A stretch of DNA of 64,000 nt from Parcubacteria group bacterium LiPW_30 (GCA_007375595.1 VMEP01000001.1:89274-153273); one strand, 5' to 3'; positions 25,428-40,250 are shown, numbered from the stretch's first letter. Numbers and translations are program-made. Notes: a model not told the origin generated them from the letters alone.

Positions 25428-26447
25428 TTAGAACTCCCTAACTTTAATAGTGCGGACAACAACACGAACTGTTTTTGAGTCCTTTCTGTCACTATAGGCG
25501 TTTGAACAAGTTAAGGTGAAATCTGTAGTTTCAAGAAGTTTACTTGTTGGATAGTCAAACGATGCCCCAGCAGAAAATCTGTCTGTTTCTTTTCCACTAT
25601 CTACCCCTACTCCAACAATAGTACAACCAGTGGCACCGTTAACAAACCAACTAACTACTGATCTCGTATTGGAGAAAATTGGATTTGGTGAAGCAGTAAG
25701 GGTCCAGTCCGTAGCTTGCGTCCATGTTGATTCGTCTGATTTCAAAGGATCAACATACGGACAATCTGACGGGCAGTTTGAATTATTTTCATTTATATCA
25801 CACGTCCCATTTCCGCCTGGTGTTGGGCAAGTCGTACAATTTAAATCAGATGGCGTAATCGCTGTGCATACACCAGTACAGCCAATTATTCCATTTGCTT
25901 TTTGGCCACAACTATTTGGCGCCGACTGACAAGCTACTCCATATCCAGAAATAACTGGCGGTGCAGTCTTCTCACTACAAGTTCCATCACAACCTATTGT
26001 GCCTTGATTTGACTGCCCACACACATTGGTCGCCAAACACACTCTTCCAAAATTAGGAGGAAGCGCTGGCGCAATAGCTCCACAAATTCCATTGCAATCT
26101 ATTGTCCCTTGGCTTGATCCACAAACATTTGCAGCTGAACATGTTTGACCATAATAAACACTACAAGATATATACCCGCCACCACTTGCGCCAGCATCAC
26201 CACCACTTGCTCCGGCACCTGATCCAGACCCCGCACCGGCGGCACCACAACCGGCGGCACCAGCAGAAGCAGAACAGCTTGCTGCCGCAGCAGCTGAACC
26301 AGAACCAAAAGCAATATTATAAAAAACACCCTTGGGTAAAACTGATACTGGAATAAAAAAATTAAAAAAGACTAAAACACCAAAAAAAAGAACTAGAGCC
26401 AATATATCCTTCTTTGTTTTATTTAACATAAAATTAAACTCTTTCAT
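25428..26447 (-). CDS. secreted Cys/Gly/Ala/Ser-rich modular protein with C-terminal beta-sandwich domain; paralog of the 30501..31406 protein
   Basis: 339 aa; N-terminal signal/TM, G/A/S/C low-complexity tract, repeated CGQSNQGTIGC…C and CGQKANGIIGCTGVCTAITPSDLNCTTCP modules, C-terminal …LTASPNPIFSNT…GATGCT…DYPTSKL…TDFTLTC…VRTI..REF domain. Confidence 0.7.
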   Translation of the reverse strand: MKEFNFMLNKTKKDILALVLFFGVLVFFNFFIPVSVLPKGVFYNIAFGSGSAAAAASCSASAGAAGCGAAGAGSGSGAGASGGDAGASGGGYISCSVYYGQTCSAANVCGSSQGTIDCNGICGAIAPALPPNFGRVCLATNVCGQSNQGTIGCDGTCSEKTAPPVISGYGVACQSAPNSCGQKANGIIGCTGVCTAITPSDLNCTTCPTPGGNGTCDINENNSNCPSDCPYVDPLKSDESTWTQATDWTLTASPNPIFSNTRSVVSWFVNGATGCTIVGVGVDSGKETDRFSAGASFDYPTSKLLETTDFTLTCSNAYSDRKDSKTVRVVVRTIKVREF

Positions 26448-26449
26448 TG

Positions 26450-27505
26450 TTATTTAATCCAACCACCAAACCATAAAAACTCATTGGTGTATTTATTTAA
26501 CTTTATAATATCCGTTGCAACAGAAGTCGCAATGTCATAGACAGAAATAACCACATATTCATTCCCCGTTTTTTCAGACACTCTTATTTCCTGCAAACCC
26601 AAAGACTTACCGTCTGGAGAAAATACAGACCAATAAGCTTTTACTTGGAAAACCTTAATCGGGGTTATAGAAAATGACTCCCATGAATTAATCTTTGAAA
26701 CAACGACATTTTTCTTTCCTGGTGAAGACCATGCGAGCATGTTCCTGTCACGAGATAAAGACAATTTCATCGTTTGAGAAGCTCGACCATCAACAGTTTT
26801 AACAACAACACCAATTTCTTTTGGATTTAAAGTGTCTTTAATATCAAAGATATATAACCCATCATTTTTTAAAACTAAAAGTTTTGTTTCGTCTGGAGAA
26901 AACAGAGGGTTAACTCCATTAGAAACCTTAACCGCTTTTCCAGAAAGATTAGTTAAGAAAACAGTCCAACCTTCCGGAAATTCAGTTGTTTCCCCTTCTT
27001 TAAGATCTTCTCTTTGAGAAATGTAAGCAATTAAAGACTTCGAAGGGCTTATTATTGGCTCTCTTTTAAAAACTTCTGGACCATTTGTTATTTGTCTTAT
27101 TCCTGTTCCATCTGGTAACGCTGTATATATTTGAATTGCTGGCTCACTTATCTTTCTGCCCGCAAAAACCATTATCGATTCATCGTCTGAAAATGAAGGT
27201 GATAAACGAATACTGTAATCCACCGCCGATGTTGAAGGATCAACCAATACACGCTGAAGTCTCCCTGAAATAAATTTGTAAGAATAAATACCTAAAGGTG
27301 TTGCAGTGTTGTCCGGGAAAAGAGAGAAGAACAAAGTTCCTGATATCTGTTGTTGTGGAACAACCACCTCAACGGGTGTTTTCACCACCTCCTTTCTTAA
27401 AAAACTTAAAAGAGAAGGCTGAAAAAACCAAACATAAAAACCGATGAGGACAACAACAATTATCCCAATAAGAACTAAGATTGCGGCGAGTTTTTTTGAT
27501 TCCAT
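26450..27505 (-). CDS. membrane-anchored TolB-like (PD40/WD40-like) beta-propeller protein
   Basis: 351 aa; N-terminal TM, repeated …SPDG(K/T)… PD40-like motifs. Confidence 0.55.
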   Translation of the reverse strand: MESKKLAAILVLIGIIVVVLIGFYVWFFQPSLLSFLRKEVVKTPVEVVVPQQQISGTLFFSLFPDNTATPLGIYSYKFISGRLQRVLVDPSTSAVDYSIRLSPSFSDDESIMVFAGRKISEPAIQIYTALPDGTGIRQITNGPEVFKREPIISPSKSLIAYISQREDLKEGETTEFPEGWTVFLTNLSGKAVKVSNGVNPLFSPDETKLLVLKNDGLYIFDIKDTLNPKEIGVVVKTVDGRASQTMKLSLSRDRNMLAWSSPGKKNVVVSKINSWESFSITPIKVFQVKAYWSVFSPDGKSLGLQEIRVSEKTGNEYVVISVYDIATSVATDIIKLNKYTNEFLWFGGWIK

Positions 27506-28232: not shown

Positions 28233-29099
28233 CTAGATTTTGCGAATTTTTTTTGAAAAATCAAAATCATTTTCTATATTCTGTCTAATCTTTTCGTCAA
28301 TAAGCGCTCCTTCTTTTGTCTCAGAAAAACTCCTACTTGTGTCAACGAGATGATTGTCATATAAATATTTATCAGAAAATATCGGAATAAACACCCTAAG
28401 TCCTAACAATGTATCATTTTTTTGTAATGATTTTTGTATATGTTGAATAACACTAGTAGCGCATGCATCTCTAAGCAAACTATACCATGTTGGTCTGTGG
28501 GACAACTCCTCGGCTCGAACAAACATATCTTCGGCAAGTATCTTCATACTCTCTTTAGGTAAAACAAGTGGATACAAATAAACTAAATTACCCCTAGAAA
28601 AAGCACGGAGAGTTAGGGCGTCTTTTTCATCAACAATTAAATAAGAAAGTTCAAGTTGCCGAAAGATAGTCTTAAAAAGAGAGTACTCCTCCCCTTTCTC
28701 CCTCATTCCCTCTGGTGAAATAGTAATATACGTTCCGTCTTCAAAACCAAAAGAGAGCATTGCGTGTGCTTTAAACTTACTGTCTGTAAAGGGTATCAAA
28801 ATATAATCTATTGAGCGGATAGTATTTAAGTCAAAAGTAGCATCATAATAGTCTTGTATATACGACTCCTTATCAGCGTGTAAAAAGCTTCTAACATTAT
28901 GAACTGTAACAATACTTCCACTAAAACTTACTTCGGGTAATTTTTGATACAAAGGATTATAATCATGCGAATATGTTGGTTCTACGGTGAAATACCAAGA
29001 AAGGAAAATAGCAAACAAAAAGATAATTAAAAGAATAAAAAAATTAAATACTTTTTTTAAAACTGGAAAAGTTTTTTGAAAAACCTTATTAAAATTCAT
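28233..29099 (-). CDS. hypothetical membrane-anchored protein (DUF4105/Lnb-like periplasmic domain suspected)
   Basis: 288 aa; N-terminal TM then a soluble domain with no recognised catalytic motifs. Confidence 0.35.
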   Translation of the reverse strand: MNFNKVFQKTFPVLKKVFNFFILLIIFLFAIFLSWYFTVEPTYSHDYNPLYQKLPEVSFSGSIVTVHNVRSFLHADKESYIQDYYDATFDLNTIRSIDYILIPFTDSKFKAHAMLSFGFEDGTYITISPEGMREKGEEYSLFKTIFRQLELSYLIVDEKDALTLRAFSRGNLVYLYPLVLPKESMKILAEDMFVRAEELSHRPTWYSLLRDACATSVIQHIQKSLQKNDTLLGLRVFIPIFSDKYLYDNHLVDTSRSFSETKEGALIDEKIRQNIENDFDFSKKIRKI

Positions 29100-29193: not shown

Positions 29194-29793
29194 TTACTTC
29201 CTGACTTGAATCGCAGAGACCAATTCGCGAATCTTGTCCTTTACTGTCGAGTCGATGTTGCCGGCGTTCTGAACCCAGATGGTAAAGCCTAGGGTTTTTT
29301 CCTGCTTCCCGTCACTGTCGACAAACGAGCCACCGGGGGGCATCGGGATGTCGAAGTGATAGAACGAAACAAAGAACGTCCCGTGCTGAAGTGGCACTTC
29401 ACAATCGCGAATGACCCCCTTCTCGTTGACTGCGGAAGGTGCCGCTTCTTCGCGACACTTAATCTTCCCGTAGCCAAGGCCGTCTGACATCGCGTTATAA
29501 ACCACCTTCTCGACTGCCTCGGGCGTCACCATTTGGGTACGCCACAGGACAACGGTCCAGTAGGTTCTATCTTTCTGGATGCACACGGGGAACCGGAAAG
29601 TATTAACCCCCTCCCTCGGAAGTACTTGGTTTTTTGCAGAACATTTCAGGTCCCAGGAGAACCCGAAGAAACTCCGTTCCTGTTCGCGAAGGTCAATGGT
29701 AAAGCCATAGTTGTCGAGCAAAAATGGCTTCATCTCGACCGCCGAGGCGACAGACCAAAAAGCGCAAAGCAAAGCGAAAATCGTTTTTTTCAC
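29194..29793 (-). CDS. small secreted protein of unknown function, compositionally foreign (GC ~50%); GTG start with strong SD
   Basis: 199 aa; signal peptide MKKTIFALLCAFWSVASA; AAGGAGA SD; GC markedly above neighbours. Confidence 0.6.
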   Translation of the reverse strand: MKKTIFALLCAFWSVASAVEMKPFLLDNYGFTIDLREQERSFFGFSWDLKCSAKNQVLPREGVNTFRFPVCIQKDRTYWTVVLWRTQMVTPEAVEKVVYNAMSDGLGYGKIKCREEAAPSAVNEKGVIRDCEVPLQHGTFFVSFYHFDIPMPPGGSFVDSDGKQEKTLGFTIWVQNAGNIDSTVKDKIRELVSAIQVRK

Positions 29794-30000: not shown

Positions 30001-30405
30001 CTACATCTTCCAGATCTTCCGGACGGCGACGGCCTTGTTCTTCTCGCTGATGTACGGGCTCATTTCACAGGCCATCGTGGCGATCTGTCGCAAAATCAAC
30101 TTGTTGCGCGCGGATTCGGCGCCGGCCGGTGTGTGTACGCGAAACATCGCAGCCGCAACGGCAACGTTGAAGTTCTTGACGCGGCACTGCTTGTCCATCT
30201 TTTCCTTGTAGTCGTTGGCGAGAATAACGACGGTGTCGCGATATTCCTGACCACCGGCCGTCCACATCGCCTCAAGAACCATTTGGTTCGCGGCTTCGCT
30301 TGCGGAAAGCTTCTTTCCGGGTTGCGCAGCAACGGCCGTGGTGGCGAAAAGGAATGCGCCCAGCGCCAGCGAGACCAGCTTCAACAGCGTCTTCGTGCTT
30401 TTCAT
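30001..30405 (-). CDS. small secreted protein of unknown function, compositionally foreign (GC ~55%)
   Basis: 134 aa; signal peptide MKSTKTLLKLVSLALGAFLFATTAVAA; the overlapping + strand ORF (29983..30429) is Arg-rich antisense noise. Confidence 0.6.
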   Translation of the reverse strand: MKSTKTLLKLVSLALGAFLFATTAVAAQPGKKLSASEAANQMVLEAMWTAGGQEYRDTVVILANDYKEKMDKQCRVKNFNVAVAAAMFRVHTPAGAESARNKLILRQIATMACEMSPYISEKNKAVAVRKIWKM

Positions 30406-30500: not shown

Positions 30501-31406
30501 CTAAAACTCCCTAATATTAATAGTACGAACAATAACACGAACAGTTTTTGAGTCACTTCTACCACTGTAAGCATTTTTACAAGTTAAAGTGAAGTCAGTA
30601 TTTTCTTGCAGTTTACTTGTTGGGTAGTCAACGGCTGGTCCTCCTACATATCTATCGGTTTCTTTTCCGGTATTTACCCCAACTCCAACCAAAGTACATC
30701 CGGTTGCTCCAGTAACTTCGTAACTTACCATTGTTTTTGTATTAGAGAAGATTGGGTTTGGAGATGCTGTAAGAGCCCACTCTGAAGCAGGTGTCCAGAT
30801 AGCACCTTCTCCTGCTGGAGTTGATGTTGTTGCTGGAGCAACATATGGACAATCTGCTGGGCAGTTTGAATTATTTTCTTTTGGATCACAAACTCCGTTA
30901 CCTTTTGGTGCGGGACAAGTTGTACAATTTAAATCAGACGGTGTAATCGCTGTACATACACCAGTACATCCGATTATTCCGTTTGCTTTTTGCCCACAGC
31001 TATTAGCAGATGACTGACATGGTGTTCCGTATCCAGAAGGTAGTGCTGGTGCGGTGGTAACACTACAACCACCACCACAAACTATTGTTCCCTGGTTTGA
31101 CTGCCCACAAACATTTGAGACTAAACAAACTCTTCCAAAATCAGGTGCATCGTGATAATCACCAGACTCACAAGATGCTGGTATTATCTCCCCACCAAAA
31201 ACTCCTCTGGGTGAAATAGAGGTAAAACCAACTTCTAGTGACCCTGTGGCTATTTTATTTTTTGTATTGGAAATATTTTCTCCCACACTAAAAATAAACA
31301 ACACTCCGACAAAAAAAATAAGCAAAAATAATTTTCTTTTAATTTCTCTAAAAAAATAGCTGTCTTTATTCATTGTTGTTAATTTTATAATATCACGTAA
31401 AACCAA
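30501..31406 (-). CDS. secreted Cys-rich modular protein; last gene of the sagB-ycaO-TPR operon; paralog of 25428..26447
   Basis: 301 aa; N-terminal TM/signal, CGQSNQGTIVCGGGCS… and CGQKANGIIGCTGVCTAITPSDLNCTTCP modules identical to paralog, shared C-terminal beta domain. Confidence 0.7.
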   Translation of the reverse strand: MVLRDIIKLTTMNKDSYFFREIKRKLFLLIFFVGVLFIFSVGENISNTKNKIATGSLEVGFTSISPRGVFGGEIIPASCESGDYHDAPDFGRVCLVSNVCGQSNQGTIVCGGGCSVTTAPALPSGYGTPCQSSANSCGQKANGIIGCTGVCTAITPSDLNCTTCPAPKGNGVCDPKENNSNCPADCPYVAPATTSTPAGEGAIWTPASEWALTASPNPIFSNTKTMVSYEVTGATGCTLVGVGVNTGKETDRYVGGPAVDYPTSKLQENTDFTLTCKNAYSGRSDSKTVRVIVRTINIREF

Positions 31407-31433
31407 ACCATAAATATAAACTTATCCACTTTT

Positions 31434-32228
31434 TTAACTTTCAACACCGTCTATTAATTCAAGGTTCCTCTTTATTGATTCCCTCATTGCCCTAAGTCCG
31501 TCGCTGTAAATTTCTGGGTTATTACCAGGATAAGCCACCCCCCATTCATTAACATCCATATTCTCTGCAATAAACAGAGCCTTAACCAACACATCTTTTG
31601 CTTCTCTTTTTTGTCCAAGATTAAGTAACGCCACACCTTTTGAATTAAGTAACCAAACGCTGTCAGGATAATATTTCAAACCACTATCGGCAGTAGCAAG
31701 AACCTTTTTATAATCACCCATCCTAAAATAGACCCAGGCCAAGTCGTTATACCCTGCCCAACTATCTTTTTTCCATTCAAGAAATTCCACAAAATCACTT
31801 TCTGCCTCTTCTAGTTTGTTGTCGTATCCATTGATAAGCCCTCTAACATAATATGAGCGCCTGAAATCTGGGTATAGTTCGAGTTCTTTATTAATCTCGC
31901 TTCTTGCCTCATAAAGATTATTGTTTATGAAATGAAGTCGTGCTATTTGATAGTGTAATCTTTCTAGTGCACTATCTACCGCTAAAGCTTTTCTATAATA
32001 CTTTTCGCTTTTGCTCAAATCATAAGCCCCTTCCCCAAAGTAGTAATTACCAATATTAAAAAATAATTCTGCGTCATTTTGATTTAATAGTGTTGCAACA
32101 GCTTCAATATGAAAATTATTCCAAATCGTAGAAGCAACACTAGTGCGAAAAACAAATAAAGAAATAATACTCAACAAAAGCGCAAAACATGTTAATAGAA
32201 AAATTGTTTTTATTTTTAACTTATTCAT
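31434..32228 (-). CDS. membrane-anchored TPR-repeat protein
   Basis: 264 aa; N-terminal TM, then TPR-like helical repeats (…YYRKALAVDSALERLHYQIARLHF… / …YYVRGLINGYDNKLEEAESDF…). Confidence 0.55.
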   Translation of the reverse strand: MNKLKIKTIFLLTCFALLLSIISLFVFRTSVASTIWNNFHIEAVATLLNQNDAELFFNIGNYYFGEGAYDLSKSEKYYRKALAVDSALERLHYQIARLHFINNNLYEARSEINKELELYPDFRRSYYVRGLINGYDNKLEEAESDFVEFLEWKKDSWAGYNDLAWVYFRMGDYKKVLATADSGLKYYPDSVWLLNSKGVALLNLGQKREAKDVLVKALFIAENMDVNEWGVAYPGNNPEIYSDGLRAMRESIKRNLELIDGVES

Positions 32229-32259
32229 TTAACTAAAAAACTTCCGTGTATCCATATTA

Positions 32260-33717
32260 CTATGGAAATGGGTGTGGGTATGGATTTAATTTGAAATTTT
32301 CAACACCTTTATAGCGGGCGAATTGTTTTAACCTGTCACTATCAAAAGTTCCGTATTTTTCTACCAGAAACAACGGAAAGCAAAAAGGTATAAACGACTG
32401 TGCCACACGAAACCCTAATTTATCCATTGCTTTATTTTTAGGAAAATAAATAAGAGGGGTATACTCGCTCCCCAACTTAGTAAAAATATTTTCTAAAACA
32501 TTTGTTTCATCTTCTTCCCCTAAGGCGTTCGCGCTATTATTCACATAATTAAACACATCACCAGAAACAAACCACCTAAAAAGTTTAACCCACTCCTCTC
32601 CTTGCCACATTGTTATTCTTTTCTCTCTATCGATATCACTTATAAATGGGGTAAAATTACCAACCTCAACCTCTGCTTGATCCCTATCAAGATTAGCGAC
32701 ACATTGCTCGGCTTCTTCTAGCGCTTTTCTGACTGCAGAATGCAAATCAACACCAGCACCACCGGATACAGCAAAAGATTTTTTATTTAAATTATTCTTT
32801 CCAACGACGACACACGCTGAAGGGATACCTATGTTTGTTGTTGTTTCTAAAACATAAGTATCAACACCAATACTCTTAAAATCTTTTACGTACAAAAACA
32901 AATCCTCGGGTAATGATTCATTTATGATAACCTTTGGCGCAATTTGCGTTAACCAATGCACCAAAAAAGAATCTCTCTCTACGTATTCCAATATTGAATT
33001 TTTAATAACATCCTCCTTGGAAAAACCGCCAGCCGAACCGCTGGTGGTTGGATTCATGGTTATTATATTTTTTTTGCGCCTCCATGAAGTAAGACTTCTT
33101 GGTATCAAAGCAACTTCGTTGGTTAAAAAATTAAACCCCTTAACCCATTCTATCGCCTGATCATCATCTACTCTCAACTCCTTAAACAGCTCTCTTTGTT
33201 GTGGTAAAAATCTATGATATACAGGCGGGTAAAAAATATTTTTATATTTTATTTTTAATTCATTAAAAGAGCCCACAATAAAATCGTTATTTTCATCATA
33301 AAGCCCTGAGACAGCTCTTTCTATTAATTCCCCTATTGCCTTGGAGAGAGCCATGTCGCTATTCTTGTGGTGCCCAGTACTTTTTACTAAAAATTCTTCT
33401 CCGTCTAAAAGGCGCGTGGTATATATATTTATATTCCAATAAGAAGCAGTGTTCATTTTGCTTACCGCAGACAACATTTTGTTTCTATTCAAGAAATTAA
33501 TAATTATATCGTATGCGGGGCTATGGTCGTGAGGATATTTAATATAAACATCCTTAAGCCATGAAAACTTTAAAAATAAAGACAATAGAAAAATATGAAA
33601 TCTATCGCCAACACCAAGCGGTAATTTCCACGGTCCATTTTTTTGCATTTGGCGAATATCGTCAACGTAATCTTTCGCTAAAATATATCCAGGTGAATTA
33701 AATAAATTGTTTTCCAT
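32260..33717 (-). CDS. YcaO-domain protein (azoline-forming cyclodehydratase / backbone-amide activating enzyme family); second Met (MENNLF) taken as start
   Basis: YcaO ATP-binding signature GHHKNSDMALSKAIGELIERA; TSGSAGG motif; Pro-rich C-terminus NPYPHPFP characteristic of TOMM cyclodehydratases. Confidence 0.75.
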   Translation of the reverse strand: MENNLFNSPGYILAKDYVDDIRQMQKNGPWKLPLGVGDRFHIFLLSLFLKFSWLKDVYIKYPHDHSPAYDIIINFLNRNKMLSAVSKMNTASYWNINIYTTRLLDGEEFLVKSTGHHKNSDMALSKAIGELIERAVSGLYDENNDFIVGSFNELKIKYKNIFYPPVYHRFLPQQRELFKELRVDDDQAIEWVKGFNFLTNEVALIPRSLTSWRRKKNIITMNPTTSGSAGGFSKEDVIKNSILEYVERDSFLVHWLTQIAPKVIINESLPEDLFLYVKDFKSIGVDTYVLETTTNIGIPSACVVVGKNNLNKKSFAVSGGAGVDLHSAVRKALEEAEQCVANLDRDQAEVEVGNFTPFISDIDREKRITMWQGEEWVKLFRWFVSGDVFNYVNNSANALGEEDETNVLENIFTKLGSEYTPLIYFPKNKAMDKLGFRVAQSFIPFCFPLFLVEKYGTFDSDRLKQFARYKGVENFKLNPYPHPFP

Positions 33718-33721
33718 AAAA

Positions 33722-34453
33722 CTAAAAAGAAATCGTATAAACCAAACTCTCACTACTACCATCTAATTTAAGTAGACCCTCTACCCTTATATCACTGGAC
33801 GACCCATTTGGGATAAAAGTTAAACCATTCTCAACCCCAGACAACAATATATTCTGCCCAATATGCCCTGCTTCTAATAAAATATAACGATAACCCCGAC
33901 TTCCGTATTTACGTGTTGCACGATCAAAAACACTAGCTAGGCAAATCATTCCAAAACCGCCAACCGCCCATTTATCACTTTGATAGGAAAGTATATCGTC
34001 AGAAGAAAAACTTCTTCGCTCAACCAACTCAAGACTATGAGTTTGAAGTTCGTAATGATATACGCCAGATTCTAATTCTTCTATATTTTTAAACAAAATT
34101 AAATATAACTCGACTGAATACCTTGCTCCACCAGAAGGTGCTGTTCTATGAATTGTTCCGTCTTTTCTTTTTATTTCTCCGCAAGCACACTTTAATATTT
34201 TTGATATTTTCTCTAAAGTAACAAAATTGTCTGGTAACGATTTGCGGTCGGACGATCTTTTTTGTAAAAGATTAAATAATTCAGTATTAAAATTATCACT
34301 AAGTTTTATCGGGTCAAAAAATGGAATTTTCTTATACTCTGTGGTTTTCCAACTTATCGGCCACTTTGTTATATCAGCAGGGATTTTTATTAAACCACCC
34401 TCTGTTTTATCTTTAGTTGACCTGTGAAAAAATTTATATAAAAACGGTCTCAT
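33722..34453 (-). CDS. SagB-type (McbC-like) FMN-dependent dehydrogenase, nitroreductase superfamily
   Basis: 243 aa; nitroreductase RRSxR-like KRSSDRK and SagB signature …RTAPSGGARYSVELYLIL…; 4 bp upstream of the ycaO start. Confidence 0.7.
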   Translation of the reverse strand: MRPFLYKFFHRSTKDKTEGGLIKIPADITKWPISWKTTEYKKIPFFDPIKLSDNFNTELFNLLQKRSSDRKSLPDNFVTLEKISKILKCACGEIKRKDGTIHRTAPSGGARYSVELYLILFKNIEELESGVYHYELQTHSLELVERRSFSSDDILSYQSDKWAVGGFGMICLASVFDRATRKYGSRGYRYILLEAGHIGQNILLSGVENGLTFIPNGSSSDIRVEGLLKLDGSSESLVYTISF

Positions 34454-34506
34454 TGCGTGCTCATAATACTACATACGTAAGACTTCAGACAATTTATTAA
34501 AAACAA

Positions 34507-34536
34507 AGCGGGGCGGGTATTAAATATACCCGCCCC
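34507..34536 (-). terminator. terminator after GC-rich gene (GCGGGGCGGGTATTAAATATACCCGCCCCG)
   Basis: 10-bp GC stem; separates the GC-rich islet from the native sagB promoter region. Confidence 0.55.
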
Positions 34537-34565
34537 GGAAAATTCTGAAACACGTACTTTCCTTG

Positions 34566-35010
34566 CTACTTGACGACCTTCTTGAAGACACCGTTGTTGC
34601 GGCCGCCGGAAGGATCATGGTACCTGGCCCACAGCGTATCGCCGTGGTATTCAAAGATACAGGTACCGCTCCTTCGGGGATTGCATAGCCACGACAACTT
34701 GTCGCCCTTGATTTCTGCTCCTTCGAACGGCCATGGGTTCGTGGAGTTGTTTTCTCCGTACGAACCGCTGGCGACACAGTTCGTGCCGACCTCTTTGGCA
34801 TGAAGGCGCATCTCGCCGTAATTGCCGTAATCCCATTTGCCCACCCAAACTCCGACGAAGGCGACGCAATTTGCTGGGACAACAACCTCTGGCACCGACT
34901 TGGTGGCGTCACCTTCACCCGCCGCGAGCATCGTTTTTTGGGCAAAAGAAGGCAGGCCGAAGCCGAGGCAGAGACAAGTGGAAAATAACACCAAAAAACT
35001 CCTGATTTTC
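34566..35010 (-). CDS. small secreted protein of unknown function, compositionally foreign (GC ~53%); start at MKIRSF with GGAGG SD
   Basis: 148 aa; signal peptide MKIRSFLVLFSTCLCLGFGLPSFA; six overlapping spurious ORFs in other frames typical of local high GC. Confidence 0.55.
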
Positions 35011-35140
35011 ATGGCAACCTCCTCTTGATTTAAAATGAGTACCACTCTAAAGGTGCGGTCTTTTGTCACCTATCCATAATTGTACCATATTTTATAAATA
35101 ATGCAAGTACACAAAACCCGAGTGAAACGATTAGTATAAA

Positions 35141-36331
35141 TTACTTAAAATCAGGCTCCGTCCAACCATTAGACATGAGCCATGACTTAAATTCCGGTAC
35201 TTTATTCGCGATTAATAAAACATTCCACTTGCTGTAGATATCCATTCTTACATAATTACTACCTTCTAATTTTTGCTCAAACTTTGAATTTATTATTTTC
35301 TTAATAACACTTCCTTTGTATGAACTAGGTTTCTTTGTGTCAAAATTAAGAATAGGACCTAGTGCCATTTTTATTTCTTCGGAAGTACTTGAATCAAGTA
35401 TTGCCAAAGTTGATGAATTTACAAGAGAGGTGAAAATATTTAACTCAATAACAAAACGAGAGGAATAATCCATTGCAAATGTAAAAATTTCCCGCGATGT
35501 TTTAGCTGAAGTGTGATTGATGCCCATGGCCTCAAGGTAACGAAGGGTGGAGGCATATTGATTTAACCCAACCAAAATATCTCTGGCTGGAATATCGCTT
35601 GATGTTAACTTGCCTTCTAGTATTTTTACAACGTCATCGTTGGATGCAGACAAAAACTCTAACGCTTTTTTTATGTCACGCTCCATATTCTTTAAATAAA
35701 CACCTCTCTCCCCTTCTGGTATTTTCTTTGATCTAATTACTTTGAAATAAGTATTTCCGGCATACTGGTTTGCAGCTGTTGCTAATCCTGCAATATCAAC
35801 ATAACCATGTTTATGCAACACTTCTACGTAAGCAAGGTATATATAAAAAGACACCTCAGTATACGTTTGTGGTAATTTTTTATCCTTTAGTTTAAGAAAC
35901 TCTTCTGGATAAATACCTTCCGCTTCTTTAAGAAAAGAGAGTTCTGGGTGATTTTCTACATAATCATATATTTCATAGATATTACCCCCGTTATCGAAAA
36001 ATCTATGCGTAATGAAATAAGCGGCAGATTTCGTTTCCGCGTCATTAACACCTTTTTTAATATCCTCCACTAAAGATTTCTGAAGGGCTTCAGGTTTATT
36101 CTGTAACAAACTTTCGTAATAAGCTTTATCGTTCTGTAACAAACTTTCGTAATAAGCTTTATCGCGTTGTGCTATTTTGTTTGCCTTATCTTTTTCAAAA
36201 AAATAAAAAACGCTAAAAGAAATAAAGAAAAAAACAACAACTAGCGCAAAAAGGCTAACAAAAACAGCCTTGGATGAGATCTCGCTCACTGGCTCTTCTT
36301 GGTTATAAAAATCACCTTTTATTTCATTCAT
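35141..36331 (-). CDS. hypothetical membrane-anchored protein with internal 11-aa tandem repeat
   Basis: 396 aa; N-terminal TM; RDKAYYESLLQNDKAYYESLLQN from a 33-bp tandem DNA duplication (~36090-36160). Confidence 0.5.
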   Translation of the reverse strand: MNEIKGDFYNQEEPVSEISSKAVFVSLFALVVVFFFISFSVFYFFEKDKANKIAQRDKAYYESLLQNDKAYYESLLQNKPEALQKSLVEDIKKGVNDAETKSAAYFITHRFFDNGGNIYEIYDYVENHPELSFLKEAEGIYPEEFLKLKDKKLPQTYTEVSFYIYLAYVEVLHKHGYVDIAGLATAANQYAGNTYFKVIRSKKIPEGERGVYLKNMERDIKKALEFLSASNDDVVKILEGKLTSSDIPARDILVGLNQYASTLRYLEAMGINHTSAKTSREIFTFAMDYSSRFVIELNIFTSLVNSSTLAILDSSTSEEIKMALGPILNFDTKKPSSYKGSVIKKIINSKFEQKLEGSNYVRMDIYSKWNVLLIANKVPEFKSWLMSNGWTEPDFK

Positions 36332-36334
36332 AAC

Positions 36335-36616
36335 TTAAAATCCACCGTCGCCACTGCTACTACAATCACCGCCACCATCACCGCCACCACTACCCCCATC
36401 ACCATCACCACCACTACCCCCATCACCACCGCCACCAAAAGGATTAAATGGAACATCTGCTTTAGCAACAGGCACAAGGAAAGAGCTGTCTTTTGAGTAG
36501 TTAGAGCTTATGTAACCACCAATAGTTCCCAGTATCCCAGTAACCAAGATACTTAATAAAAATGATGTTTTCTTTTTTGCTTTTTGAATCATATTAGTGG
36601 TAAGTATATCACCCAA
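36335..36616 (-). CDS. small membrane-anchored protein with Gly/Asp/Ser-rich C-terminal tail (GGGGDGGSGGDGDGGSGGGDGGGDCSSSGDGGF)
   Basis: 93 aa; TM segment then low-complexity G/D/S/C tail; 3 bp downstream of the next gene's stop. Confidence 0.4.
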   Translation of the reverse strand: MGDILTTNMIQKAKKKTSFLLSILVTGILGTIGGYISSNYSKDSSFLVPVAKADVPFNPFGGGGDGGSGGDGDGGSGGGDGGGDCSSSGDGGF

Positions 36617-36640
36617 TAGTATATGTTTTGTGGATAACTA

Positions 36641-38578
36641 CTACACACCCTTTATTTTCTTAAGTAAAGAAGCGCCTATTAATATATGAGCTGTAGCATC
36701 AATCCAAACCTCTTGATTTAAATTATCATGGCGAAAACCACCTAAAATTTTCTCCCTAATATTATTTTTAACAAAAAAAGTGTTTTCTTTTGTGTATTGC
36801 ATGTCCATAATCCATAGCATTGTTTTCTCAATCACTTTTTTATTTTTCTCTAAATCCAAAGACAAAACTTCAAATATTTTTCCTGTCCCCCTAACGTAGG
36901 AAAATACCGAGCCATCTAAACTTGGGAAACTACCATCTTTTAACTGTTTCGAAACATACCAATCGTTAATTTTACTAGCATTTTCTAATAGTTCTTTATT
37001 ATTTGTTTTTTTACTTATCTCTTTAAATAAATAAATTAATTCCGGATACCTAGCTAGTTCTAATCTATTTTCCTTAATCCCCTTTTCATAATCTTCTAAA
37101 ACAATCTTAGTAAATTCTTTTGCTTTTTTTAAATAATCATCATCTTGAGACGCGACATCCATAAAATGAATAGCGATCTGTGAATATAAAATCGGCTCAT
37201 AACCTAAGTTGGGAATGAGGCTGATAATCATCTTTTCGCTTTTTTGGGCTTCTTCGTGTTCACCCAAAACAACAGCCAGTCTTCTGTAATAAATTAAAGA
37301 CAGACAACGCGAATATTCGGGAATGTATGGATGGTCATATAAGTTTTCTCTAAGATATAAAAAACTTTTTCTTGCTGGTTCTTTATACAAATCGTTTTTA
37401 GTCGTTTCTCCCCACAAAGAAAGCGCCCATGCTGTCAGAGCTGACCGAACCCAGTCTATTTGACTAATCTTGCCTGAGAGCGGATTTATAATCGGTGGAA
37501 TATTACCATCGCTTTCTTGAATCCTACAAATAAAGTCGGCGCTTTTGTTAACACTCTCGTAAAAACTAGAGTAAATCTCTTCTTCTTTAGTATCATCAAA
37601 ATGATTGTTACTTAAAACAATTGGCCCACTCAAAGATAATGGCTTCTTTTTTGTTGATTCTATAAAATTATCAACTTCAAATATTTCAATTAAAGCGTTC
37701 GGCAAAAAAAGTCTTGAGACACCAATCTTCTTTTCAATAAGGCTTACCAAAAAATCATTTAAACCACTGAATGAAACACAGTTAAAAACAGCTGGTAAAA
37801 ACCAACCCCGTCTACCGCCTACCGACATAAGATAGCCTTTTTCTGTATAAATAAAATTTGATGCTTTTTCCTTTTTTAAAAGCGGGATCCTTAAGCTAGA
37901 GAGAATTGCGATTTCAATCGTTGTGCTATTTAGCTCTTCAAACGAAACTGGTTTAAACCTTTCATCCCTACAGGCAAGTATCGTTGCCTCTTCAATAGCA
38001 CCCCCAAGCGGTAAACTCTCGATTATACGAGAACCGCGTAACTCACCACCAACCCACAAAGCAACGTCAACGTTCACTTTTTGAGAAAACCGACCTGTGG
38101 TAATTTTTGGCAAATCTTCCCTGTTGCCACCTTTTTTCAAAAAATTTTCTAAGATATGTCTAGAATGATTAAGTGCTTCTTCTTTTTCTTTTTCTTTTAA
38201 GCCGAAACGAATTGGTAAATTATCACTATGGTATTTTTCTTTATTTTCCCAAATCTCGAATTCGTTAGATAAAAAAATACTTTGCCAATCACTGGCGGAA
38301 CTAAAGTTGTTTTTCTCAAGAGCTTCATTAAGCCCGCCTTTTCTACAAAAAATAAAGGATGGTTTTTGTTTTGTTTTATCAAAAAAATTACCCTTCAAGA
38401 ACCTTTCTTGATGTGGAAGATCAATAAACACAACTTCATTTTCTAGTGAATTTTTTAAAAGCCAAGAAGAAAAAGCATTTATCTGCCTTAAATAATAGAT
38501 ATCGTTAAGTGTCTCAAAAAGATTAAGAAAAAACATAGATATTGTTGTAATTAGGCTTAATTGTATATACCAACACAT
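36641..38578 (-). CDS. multidomain protein: AMMECR1 domain fused to a C-terminal alpha/alpha-toroid-like domain
   Basis: 645 aa; AMMECR1 signature …VALWVGGELRGSRIIESLPLGGAIEEATILACRDERFKPV…GYLMSVGGRRGWFLPAV…; the C-terminal half has repeated (Q/K)xxDG(S/N) helical-repeat motifs. Confidence 0.5.
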   Translation of the reverse strand: MCWYIQLSLITTISMFFLNLFETLNDIYYLRQINAFSSWLLKNSLENEVVFIDLPHQERFLKGNFFDKTKQKPSFIFCRKGGLNEALEKNNFSSASDWQSIFLSNEFEIWENKEKYHSDNLPIRFGLKEKEKEEALNHSRHILENFLKKGGNREDLPKITTGRFSQKVNVDVALWVGGELRGSRIIESLPLGGAIEEATILACRDERFKPVSFEELNSTTIEIAILSSLRIPLLKKEKASNFIYTEKGYLMSVGGRRGWFLPAVFNCVSFSGLNDFLVSLIEKKIGVSRLFLPNALIEIFEVDNFIESTKKKPLSLSGPIVLSNNHFDDTKEEEIYSSFYESVNKSADFICRIQESDGNIPPIINPLSGKISQIDWVRSALTAWALSLWGETTKNDLYKEPARKSFLYLRENLYDHPYIPEYSRCLSLIYYRRLAVVLGEHEEAQKSEKMIISLIPNLGYEPILYSQIAIHFMDVASQDDDYLKKAKEFTKIVLEDYEKGIKENRLELARYPELIYLFKEISKKTNNKELLENASKINDWYVSKQLKDGSFPSLDGSVFSYVRGTGKIFEVLSLDLEKNKKVIEKTMLWIMDMQYTKENTFFVKNNIREKILGGFRHDNLNQEVWIDATAHILIGASLLKKIKGV

Positions 38579-38597
38579 TCGTTGTAAAATTCACACA

Positions 38598-40250
38598 ATG
38601 CCAAACGAAACAGAAACCGGAAAACTAAAAATAAAGGAAATCATAGAAAAAGAGGTTTTTGTAACAAAAGACAAAGAAAGAATTGTCGACCAAAATGGAG
38701 TAGACAATAGCTGGCTCTTTGATTTTAGGCGTGTTTTTTTAAGAGCAGATATCCTTGATACGGTAAGCGAATTATTTTGGGAAAAAATAAAAAATGAATA
38801 CCCTTTCCAAATAGGTGGCGTTGAAGTTGCCTCTATCCCCCTTATTACCTCTTTTGTTTTGAAAACTAAAGAAAAAGGCAAAATATCAAATGGTTTTTTT
38901 ATACGTAAATCACGTAAAAAAAGTGGTTTACTAAAAATGATTGAGGGAGAAATATCTAACGAAAAAATCATTTTGGTTGACGACATCTTAAATACCGGGA
39001 AAAGTTTTATTAGACAAGTTGAGGTTATTGAGGCGCTTGGCAAAAAAGTTAGTGCGGTATTTGTTGTCTTAAGATTTAGAGATTTACAATATTATGAATA
39101 TTTTAACGAACGTGGAATAAAAATTATCTCTCTTTTTGAGATTAATGATTTCAAGGACACACTAAAAATAGAAAATCTTATTAAATACGAAGAAAGACAA
39201 ACACCGATGCCATTTGAAACAGAGTGGTATTTCAAGAGCGAAAATCCAGACTACTTTAAGGTCATTCCAAAATCTCTACCAGCAATAGATAATGAAAAAA
39301 TTTATTTCGGTGGAGATAATGGAACTTTCTGGGCGTTAAATCAATCAAACGGAAACATAGCATGGAAATATAAAATTCTGTTTGGCGACAAAACAAAAAA
39401 AGTTTTTTCTTCGCCGATCGTCGACAATAATACTGTTTACTTTGGCGCCAACGACGGAAATTTTTATGCACTAGATTCAGAAAATGGAAAACGTAAATGG
39501 GTATTCATGGAAGCAGATTGGGTGGCCTCCTCTCCATGCATATCAAAAAGTTTAAATAGTATCTTTGTTGGACTAGAGTTTGGATTATGGGGAAAGCAAG
39601 GATGTCTTGTAGCCCTAGATTTAAATACAGGTAAAAAGAAGTGGGAATTTTCAATGTCTCAAATATCTTACTCATCACCCGCCTATTCTACGGAATCGAA
39701 CATAGTTGTTTGTGGTAATAATAATTATTCTGTTTATGGATTAGATGCAAAAACAGGAAAATTGGTCTGGGAATTTAAGACAGATGGTGAAGTAAAAGAA
39801 TCTTTCGCCTTTGACGAAAAACGTGGGTTAGTAGTTTTTGGTTCATTTGATTCGTATGTATATATTTTGGAAGCAAAAACAGGAAAACTTGTTCATAAAA
39901 CAAAGACAAATGAGGCAATATATTCTACTCCGTTGGTCCATGATGATTTTGTATACGTAGCTTCGCTTGATAAAAATCTATATTGCATTGATTTAAAAAA
40001 TGGCGCAATTGTATGGAGTTTTGCGACAAATGGCAGAATTTTTTCTTCTCCTGAAATAATTAACGACAAGATATATATTGGCTCAAATGATGGAAGACTA
40101 TATGAACTTGATAAAAAGACAGGAGAGAACACCGCTCTTTTCCAAGCAACTGAGCGGATAACAAACAAGGTCGTTTATAGTAAAAAAACCGATAGAATAT
40201 TTCTAACAACTTTTGCCAATGAGATTTATTGTTTAAAAAAGAATCTCTAA
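38598..40250 (+). CDS. fusion protein: type I phosphoribosyltransferase domain + PQQ-repeat beta-propeller
   Basis: 550 aa; PRTase PRPP-binding motif KIILVDDILNTGKSF; ≥7 PQQ-like repeats (…YALD..NGK..W…, …YGLDAKTGKLVWEF…). Confidence 0.6.
   Translation: MPNETETGKLKIKEIIEKEVFVTKDKERIVDQNGVDNSWLFDFRRVFLRADILDTVSELFWEKIKNEYPFQIGGVEVASIPLITSFVLKTKEKGKISNGFFIRKSRKKSGLLKMIEGEISNEKIILVDDILNTGKSFIRQVEVIEALGKKVSAVFVVLRFRDLQYYEYFNERGIKIISLFEINDFKDTLKIENLIKYEERQTPMPFETEWYFKSENPDYFKVIPKSLPAIDNEKIYFGGDNGTFWALNQSNGNIAWKYKILFGDKTKKVFSSPIVDNNTVYFGANDGNFYALDSENGKRKWVFMEADWVASSPCISKSLNSIFVGLEFGLWGKQGCLVALDLNTGKKKWEFSMSQISYSSPAYSTESNIVVCGNNNYSVYGLDAKTGKLVWEFKTDGEVKESFAFDEKRGLVVFGSFDSYVYILEAKTGKLVHKTKTNEAIYSTPLVHDDFVYVASLDKNLYCIDLKNGAIVWSFATNGRIFSSPEIINDKIYIGSNDGRLYELDKKTGENTALFQATERITNKVVYSKKTDRIFLTTFANEIYCLKKNL

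Follow-up and report, generated by a model that had tools for sequence, protein, structure and literature searches.

A YcaO/SagB locus of candidate-phyla-radiation bacteria with a small membrane-anchored, glycine-rich peptide as its candidate azole precursor

Which protein or peptide do the YcaO and SagB-type enzymes of Parcubacteria group bacterium LiPW_30 modify? Their genes lie in a 64,000-nt stretch of DNA from this organism (the window; all positions given here are those of the whole stretch), whose origin from a candidate-phyla-radiation (CPR) bacterium, as stated in a preliminary description, is in agreement with our finding of a CPR-like host. That description had recognised a four-gene operon at 30501-34453, had seen no leader-core precursor of less than 100 aa, and had suggested that the Cys-rich protein at the end of the operon, here called CysR, may itself be the substrate. 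Following our analyses, we infer that a small peptide encoded outside the operon, and not CysR, is the substrate of the YcaO/SagB pair and that azoles are formed on it, and we give this reading a probability of roughly 0.6.

The operon consists of four open reading frames (ORFs) on the minus strand, all in one direction, with gaps between genes of 27-31 nt:

33722-34453, minus strand: SagB-type flavin mononucleotide (FMN) dehydrogenase, azoline oxidase type, 243 aa (TIGR03605, PF00881)
32260-33717, minus strand: YcaO domain protein with no fused E1-like domain, 485 aa from Met16
31434-32228, minus strand: TPR protein with an N-terminal membrane anchor, 264 aa (several TPR Pfam models)
30501-31406, minus strand: CysR, a membrane-anchored disulfide-rich protein, 301 aa (no Pfam or NCBIfam match)

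The ORFs were found at exactly the coordinates proposed for them, and all of the motifs quoted earlier are present (QKRSSDRK, PSGGARYSVELY, ALSKAIGELIERA, the C-terminal NPYPHPFP, CGQSNQGTIVCGGGCS and CGQKANGIIGCTGVCTAITPSDLNCTTCP). The YcaO ORF extends to 33762 (500 aa), its homologues begin at Met16 (33717), and therefore there is no real overlap between SagB and YcaO. A terminator-like hairpin of 12 bp, 9 of these GC, is located upstream of SagB at 34537-34509, after a GC-rich gene (gc167), and promoter-like sites were found upstream of SagB (34492-34463) and just past the CysR gene (30498-30471). Bracketed in this way, the four genes would fit a single transcription unit, and the operon call was upheld.

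Searches with hidden Markov models (HMMs) supported the identification of both enzymes. SagB passed the TIGR03605 cutoff (108.5 bits against 78.4) and matched PF00881 at 61 bits. Its PDB relatives are McbC (2.7e-11), BmdC and CyaGox/ThcOx, and the family conserves R.S.R, PSGG.RYP.E.Y and KYG.RGYR..EAGH..QN, the last of which holds a Lys-Tyr pair. The adjoining YcaO matched PF02624 at 112 bits (cutoff 25.7) with its ATP-site motifs conserved, gave 148 database matches, and has the azoline-forming LynD and McbD as the nearest structures to its fold. The window YcaO reached 49.7 bits with the McrA-thioamidation model TIGR03266, far from the cutoff of 365, and 36 bits with the E. coli-type model (TIGR00702, RimO/S12 accessory), and falls outside both families. 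A transmembrane (TM)-like segment is nearly absent from the YcaO and SagB families, as it is from the families of two neighbouring proteins described below, the PRTase-propeller and the AMMECR1 fusion (0-4 members per family). The YcaO C-terminus NPYPHPFP is kept as NP.PHPFP across 41 family members, and Dunbar and colleagues are said to have described such a proline-rich PxPxP end in 2014 as typical of azoline-forming YcaOs. Peptide azole pathways typically include a SagB oxidase as partner. No E1-like, ThiF or RRE protein was found among the scanned neighbours in the window and in related loci, which for the E1-like partner repeats what had been noticed before, and TfuA was absent from the scanned window genes and from the Pfam tables of those related loci that have gene tables. 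The PxPxP tail, a SagB that keeps its Lys-Tyr pair, the azoline oxidases among the solved relatives of SagB and the lack of TfuA in the neighbourhood favour azole formation as the probable chemistry.

A YcaO profile scan of one genome per GTDB species gave 43 loci, nearly all of them labelled Patescibacteria/CPR, with a few automatic labels of "Bdellovibrionales", "Rickettsiales" or "bacterium". Comparison with distant YcaO relatives drew attention to an ORF situated 1.9 kb upstream of the SagB/YcaO operon, outside 30501-34453:

36335-36616, minus strand: small precursor-like peptide, 93 aa from a TTG start, 85 aa from the ATG at 36592

The ATG at 36592 is likely the true start, giving a peptide of 85 aa (MIQKAKKK...). 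In the peptide a basic N-terminus is followed by a TM helix, by the motif SFLVPVAKA|D and by a Gly/Ser/Asp/Cys tail; its leader, with the segment YISSNYSKDSSFLVPVAKAD, ends ...SSFLVPVAKA, and its core is DVPFNPFGGGGDGGSGGDGDGGSGGGDGGGDCSSSGDGGF. The next gene, p396, begins 4 nt past its stop codon. Distant YcaO relatives (42-44% identity) have an ORF of 80-98 aa directly after YcaO, followed by a protein of about 370 aa, and these ORFs likewise present a basic N-terminus, a hydrophobic helix, an S(F/L)(F/L)xPxA[HKY]A-D motif and a Gly/Ser/Cys/Asp tail, for example ...GDGCGGCSGDASADGCADSGSDSDGCCCY. An iterative HMM and motif search yielded about 40 distinct relatives of the small peptide, nearly all beside YcaO/SagB and upstream of a gene of the p396/F4 family. 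The peptide directly adjoins YcaO or SagB in at least 27 related loci and lies without exception directly upstream of a p396/F4 gene; no Pfam or NCBIfam model matched the family. The statement that a leader-core precursor of less than 100 aa is missing cannot be kept in the face of this ORF and the position of its relatives.

The two parts of the peptide differ in conservation: among six close orthologues, identity amounts to 81% in the leader and to 57% in the core, whose length varies. The composition of the approximately 40 cores is G 33%, S 16%, D 12%, A 9%, C 7% and T 4%, with K, R and H together below 1%; Cys, Ser or Thr is present in every core, and motifs such as GDGCGGCSG and CTSCTSCSSCS (the latter in locus L047) recur. 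The cleavage-like site has Ala at -1 in all cases, A, V, T or S at -3 and Asp, rarely Glu, at +1, and the pattern [AVTS]-x-A|D agrees with the -3/-1 rule of signal peptidase I. Charge bias gives an N-in topology for 27 of 27 members. Cores linked to YcaO contain 0-9 Cys, an odd number in 13 of 38, and those of YcaO-less loci contain exactly two in five of six parsed cores, the sixth (L095) having been read as 0 through a mis-parsed boundary. Close relatives carry two precursor/partner cassettes. Five loci (L011:11509-12414 on the plus strand, L012, L013, L016 and L018) have, directly after YcaO, a PT-HINT/Hint variant of the precursor of 270-300 aa, composed of a leader ending ...AHAD, a Hint domain (CFPAG...VHN; PF07591 33.9 bits, PF01079 30.2 bits), a second 'FFIPTASAD' and a Gly/Asp/Cys tail. 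The placement of PT-HINT between leader and tail suggests autoproteolytic release of the tail, which would then be the payload. The hallmarks of a precursor of peptides made by the ribosome and modified after translation (RiPPs) appear to be united in this family. We also observed, in a locus without YcaO (L090:9271-9915, minus strand), a small-peptide leader and core (...GDCGSASSGAAACGADGGGGGGGGGGS) fused to an extra C-terminal domain of about 110 aa.

CysR comprises, besides its TM helix, a stalk of conserved sequence (SLEVGFTSISPRGVFGGEIIPASCESG), modules rich in Cys and, at the C-terminus, a beta domain that ends in REF. The stalk motif of the family is SSE[VL]xF...S..G...G.[IV]VPASC[EP]S, with E58, P76, A77, S78 and C79 invariant, and many members have in common the C-terminal beta domain ending ...EF. 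The TPR protein matched several TPR models at 40-52 bits and was rightly described as a membrane protein, since it has, like CysR, a single TM segment at the N-terminus whose charge bias is N-in; the same topology was obtained for 25 of 25 TM-bearing TPR members and for 22 of 23 CysR members. The gene directly 3' of TPR encodes a Cys-rich anchored protein of 137-726 aa in 18 of 24 TPR-containing loci. The CysR alignment A2 was too divergent for a metagenome scan, and a narrower one (A3) made from YcaO-linked members was used; the scan is therefore biased to relatives of such members. Seeded with the stalk motif only, it gave 40 loci with TPR directly upstream in about 31, and YcaO was found in 7 of the 8 distinct loci whose upstream sequence reached 8 kb or more. 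From the number of cysteines between PASC and the C-terminus, which is 6-44 and is even in 38 of 39 complete members (binomial P about 7e-11, members treated as independent; the sole odd-count member looks frameshifted), it can be predicted that all CysR cysteines are disulfide-paired, the invariant stalk Cys included. The small-peptide cores, with an odd count in 13 of 38, are free of such a constraint.

A paralogue of CysR is encoded further along the minus strand, together with a different partner:

25428-26447, minus strand: CysR paralogue, 339 aa (CysR HMM)
26450-27505, minus strand: PD40/TolB-like propeller gene, anchored, upstream of the CysR paralogue

The paralogue was recognised by the CysR HMM (E=2e-87) and has no PASC stalk; after its TM helix there is a Gly/Ala/Ser/Cys low-complexity stretch, ...ASCSASAGAAGCGAAG..., and its pairing with the propeller instead of TPR is repeated in L001 and L008. 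Between the paralogue and the YcaO locus, at 28233-29099 on the minus strand, we observed a gene for an Lnb_N membrane protein of 288 aa (PF13387, 78.7 bits), the sole other copy found being that of the close relative L008.

A larger CPR-specific locus, of about 30501-40250, has the SagB-YcaO-TPR-CysR operon as one of its halves; the other, in addition to the small peptide, consists of:

34566-35069, minus strand: gc167, a GC-rich single gene for a small secreted protein, 167 aa
35141-36331, minus strand: p396/F4-family membrane-anchored all-alpha helical-repeat protein, 396 aa
36641-38578, minus strand: AMMECR1-domain fusion protein, 645 aa (PF01871, TIGR04335)
38598-40250, plus strand, divergent: orotate-phosphoribosyltransferase (PRTase)-like domain with a PQQ/BamB-like beta-propeller (PRTase-propeller), 550 aa

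Iterative HMMs were used to count the families within ±10 kb in 45 non-redundant YcaO-seeded sources, the window included:

YcaO: 43 of 45
SagB: 40 of 45
p396/F4 superfamily: 34 of 45
small peptide: 29 of 45, with six more picked out by eye upstream of F4 genes
TPR: 26 of 45
PRTase-propeller: 26 of 45
CysR: 20 of 45, the number of sources with the TPR-CysR pair by the iterative family profile
AMMECR1 fusion: 11 of 45, always adjoining the PRTase-propeller
gc167: 10 of 45

Several distant loci, for example L025, L033, L034 and L048, have the small peptide, F4, TPR and CysR in colinear arrangement. Seven further loci (L090-L096) were seeded with the PRTase-propeller: F4 and TPR adjoin it in 7 of 7, the small peptide is present in 7 of 7 and a CysR-family gene in 5 of 7, and YcaO with SagB lies within 10 kb in only 2 of 7. 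The five loci without YcaO all have F4, TPR and the small peptide, and four of them have CysR. The fraction of CysR genes with a YcaO neighbour lies between the CysR-seeded and the PRTase-propeller-seeded estimates. We propose from these distributions that the small peptide, F4, TPR, CysR and the PRTase-propeller may form an older and wider CPR envelope module, and that YcaO/SagB may be an add-on in a subset of the lineages that bear it, the present one among them.

The members of this putative module are mostly without annotation. Neither p396/F4 nor gc167 has a curated family that we could find in Pfam or NCBIfam; p396 counts 116 representatives among 1.84 billion proteins, with database relatives all named "hypothetical". 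The kinship of p396 and F4 is drawn from the convergence of iterative HMMs, the hhalign comparison not being independent of it given that the F4 alignment already held p396 members. The PRTase-propeller matched PF13570 (210 bits), PF13360 (131 bits) and, below its cutoff, the pyrE model TIGR00336 (73 bits). With at least 1356 matches at E<=1e-10, the best 120 all at least 50% identical, it is far more conserved and numerous than YcaO. The AMMECR1 fusion, first gene of the unit that includes the small peptide and p396, matched PF01871 at 41.7 bits and TIGR04335 at 54 bits, and its C-terminal 346 aa had no Pfam or PDB sequence match. Downstream of p396, genes for envelope polymers adjoin small-peptide/p396 cassettes in L015, L018, L019, L020 and L023, and also in L095: a UbiA-like prenyltransferase, a short-chain dehydrogenase/reductase (SDR), an IspD/TarI-like cytidylyltransferase and a TagF-like protein, as labelled by reading the sequences without an HMM library, and in L095, by its Pfam table, an STT3-like protein and a fusion of a family 2 glycosyltransferase (GT2) with AMMECR1. 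These neighbours are perhaps a hint of a link to surface glycopolymer assembly.

Several observations weigh against the small peptide as an azole-bearing substrate. The core in the window has only one Cys and five Ser, and its gene belongs to a separate transcription unit, with p396, the GC-rich gene and the terminator all lying before SagB. The distance of 15-25 residues from the TM segment to the AxA site is long by the standard of classical signal peptidase I substrates. Modification of a peptide anchored N-in must precede its translocation, and this timing is an assumption. On the side of the enzyme, no RRE-like or E1-like match and no leader-binding domain was identified in the first ~110 aa of YcaO, a small helical domain, and the best YcaO subfamily, TIGR03604 (SagD), scored 142.4 bits, under the trusted cutoff of 219.25. 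The YcaO profile ranks MusD (4e-27), MJ1094 (2e-25), TruD (1e-24), LynD (1e-21) and McbD (1.6e-8); as the thioamide-forming MJ1094 is matched nearly as well as MusD, sequence alone does not split azoline- from thioamide-forming relatives. Finally, the small-peptide family is also found without a nearby YcaO, and hence is not dependent on modification, and a common function in the envelope, not a relation of enzyme and substrate, could be the reason why it adjoins YcaO.

If the small peptide is set aside, the candidate within the operon is the full-length exported CysR (30501-31406), or its invariant P-A-S-C stalk. CysR shares the operon with SagB and YcaO, the TPR-CysR pair recurs near YcaO, the stalk holds an invariant Ser-Cys, and the paralogue at 25428-26447 has a core-like stretch after its TM helix. 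These points are outweighed, in our judgement, by the even cysteine count, which argues that even the stalk Cys is paired (exported structural cysteines are not expected to undergo heterocyclisation), and by the N-in anchor, which puts the body of the protein outside the compartment of the cytoplasmic enzymes. The TPR-CysR pair also occurs without YcaO/SagB within 10 kb in 4 of the 7 PRTase-propeller-seeded loci, and in many YcaO loci the small peptide and F4 are present with neither TPR nor CysR within 10 kb. Thiol-redox genes in related loci argue in the same direction, namely CcdA/DsbD_TM, TlpA/AhpC-like and DsbA-like genes (L042 7853-9701, L095, L096) and rhodaneses in L001, L007, L092, L093 and L096, of which the L001 copy has an apparent N-terminal TM segment and therefore looks extracytoplasmic. 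For its cysteine parity, its topology and its occurrence without YcaO, CysR was rejected as the leading model of the substrate, and we now regard this role as very improbable. The co-occurrence of CysR with YcaO that the preliminary description wished to see examined proved real, as the YcaO-seeded and CysR-seeded counts indicate, although not obligatory. Of two findings which that description had set together as counting against its proposal, CysR homologues without a neighbouring YcaO do exist, and a YcaO of the E. coli S12 type was not what we found. CysR is apparently linked in function to the YcaO locus, and a part as receptor or partner, not substrate, is viable.

It is also conceivable that YcaO/SagB act on an unlinked cellular protein, for example a housekeeping one, the small peptide, F4, TPR and CysR being mere neighbours with an envelope function. 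The occurrence of the envelope module without YcaO would be understood in this way, single-site YcaO modifications of proteins such as the McrA thioglycine are known, and the profile fits MJ1094 almost as closely as it does the cyanobactin enzymes. We consider such a target unlikely, given that the adjacency of the small ORF to YcaO/SagB spans very divergent lineages (YcaO identity down to 25-30%), that the p396 subfamily was only seen with YcaO (14 of 14 loci and the window), that the cores resemble classical cores of linear peptides that contain azol(in)es (LAPs), and that a SagB oxidase is the usual companion of peptide azole synthesis. A further explanation accepts the small peptide and changes the chemistry, YcaO making a thioamide or amidine and the nitroreductase-fold protein having another redox role. 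Here the YcaO scores are again ambiguous between thioamide-forming archaeal and azoline-forming enzymes, rhodanese (sulfurtransferase) genes recur beside small-peptide/F4 cassettes in relatives, and the lack of an E1-like partner is common to other non-canonical YcaOs. TfuA is missing, as described, SagB passes its family cutoff with the Lys-Tyr motif kept, the PxPxP tail has been kept, azoline formers head the list of structural neighbours, no rhodanese is present in the window and the one in L001 is probably outside the cytoplasm; this makes the thioamide or amidine quite unlikely.

Returning to the small peptide as substrate, we can outline how its azoles might be made and exported. YcaO would carry out an ATP-dependent cyclodehydration and the SagB-type flavoprotein would then oxidise the product, and the two would form an azole synthetase of the cytoplasm able to work without any E1-like, ThiF or RRE partner. 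Ser and Cys of the anionic Gly/Ser/Asp/Cys tail would become oxazol(in)es and thiazol(in)es ahead of export, the peptide being perhaps short enough to be completed before membrane targeting, which would leave time for modification. YidC- or Sec-dependent insertion is known for small acidic-tailed proteins, e.g. phage coat proteins, and it is for this reason that we place modification before insertion. The leader would be an N-in membrane anchor or signal-like segment ending in the signal-peptidase-type [AVTS]-x-A|D site; the tail would be translocated via the general insertion/secretion machinery and then released or displayed, with the Hint variants offering an alternative, self-cleaving release. 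These details of export and cleavage are tentative, and we would put them a little short of even odds. Outside the membrane, the anchored p396/F4, TPR and CysR proteins may handle, bind, present or respond to the peptide, whose possible roles include surface display, metal binding by an Asp/azole-rich peptide and host interaction.

The chemistry and the logic are those of the LAPs, or thiazole/oxazole-modified microcins (TOMMs). Microcin B17 (McbA; McbBCD), which likewise has a Gly/Ser/Cys-rich core, is the closest system overall, and among YcaO relatives the cyanobactin heterocyclases come closest. The CPR locus differs from microcin B17 in having neither the McbB (E1-like) scaffold nor the McbEFG export/immunity genes, in a leader with a TM helix and an AxA|D site, in a strongly anionic core (12% Asp, less than 1% K/R/H), and in p396/F4, TPR and CysR, which have no counterpart there. 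LynD, TruD and MusD are fusions of about 780 aa with an N-terminal E1-like/RRE region, unlike the CPR YcaO, with 485 aa and its helical domain of ~110 aa. The minimal LAP set has been given as a precursor A, a YcaO D and a dehydrogenase B, the partner C/F being required 'in most cases' (PMC7136475). The CPR locus shares this A/D/B logic with the streptolysin S, plantazolicin and heterocycloanthracin types, and some CPR relatives have Cys/Ser-repeat cores (CTSCTSCSSCS in L047); it is set apart from them by the missing C/F partner, by a TIGR03604 score under the trusted cutoff, and by the lack of a dedicated protease, ABC transporter or immunity genes. The standalone YcaOs of bottromycin work without E1-like, ThiF or TfuA partners (PMC7136475), and the CPR YcaO, going by their published description, resembles them in this one respect. 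Bottromycin is made from a precursor with a follower peptide, a macroamidine is the product of one of its YcaOs, and there is no SagB-type oxidase of the CPR family. Pretoxin-HINT modules of polymorphic toxins recall the variant of the five related loci by the position of Hint ahead of a releasable C-terminal payload. In the CPR variant, which is absent from the window, that payload is a short low-complexity peptide beside YcaO and not a toxin domain. The literature contains passing antiSMASH counts of YcaO clusters in CPR, and we found no description of a YcaO/SagB-small-peptide system in it; in one of these counts the "YcaO" clusters of CPR genomes were read as MCR thioamidation (PMC12153355).

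Some further features of the window were recorded. GC-rich single-gene islands (46-57% GC against about 35%), each encoding a small secreted protein, are located at 34566-35069, 30001-30405 and 29194-29793, all on the minus strand. Of the island genes, gc134 and gc199 bear sigma-70-like promoters close to consensus, and a GC-rich terminator hairpin comes after both gc167 and gc134. The local GC of gc167 is 0.48-0.54 compared with about 0.35 in its flanks, and its homologues were found in at least 10 loci near SagB or the PRTase-propeller. That the islands (29.1-30.45 and 34.5-35.1 kb) are assembly chimeras or recent foreign insertions was considered and rejected, since relatives whose YcaO is 87-92% identical have these genes in the same places and gc167 homologues occur also in distant loci. 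The 23S rRNA gene at 273-3552 (minus strand) has 3280 nt compared with 2925 nt in the model, which implies one or more insertions totalling about 350 nt.

CPR bacteria (Patescibacteria) have tiny genomes that are usually deemed poor in natural-product pathways, and surface biology underlies their episymbiotic lifestyle. A locus of this kind, with a probable membrane-anchored glycine-rich precursor that had been overlooked, would give them an azole pathway whose gene set is undescribed and is found across the radiation. In the most far-reaching reading, a CPR-wide envelope module may have recruited a partner-less YcaO/SagB pair, which would be the first pathway of RiPP type whose leader is itself a signal for membrane insertion or secretion, cut by the general machinery at AxA|D or by an embedded PT-HINT, with an azole peptide acting at the episymbiont surface, p396/F4 cognate to that peptide, and the PRTase-propeller, with or without the AMMECR1 fusion, in the cytoplasm. 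We advance this composite as a possibility only, and find it rather more doubtful than not. An azole synthetase without a recognisable leader-binding partner bears on the question of how YcaO enzymes recognise their substrates, and the membrane-anchor leader together with the self-cleaving Hint variant suggests a route of export and processing undescribed for RiPPs. The co-conserved surface set of p396/F4, TPR, CysR and the PRTase-propeller has so far been annotated as hypothetical throughout. If the reading with the small peptide is true, the locus is also a caution for genome mining, the precursor lying outside the enzyme operon and the Cys-rich neighbour being a decoy. What separates it from known LAPs is the lack of a C/F partner or RRE, the anchor leader, the anionic cores, the extracytoplasmic gene set and the Hint variants. 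LAP/TOMM chemistry is already known; the envelope module that it joins may itself be new.

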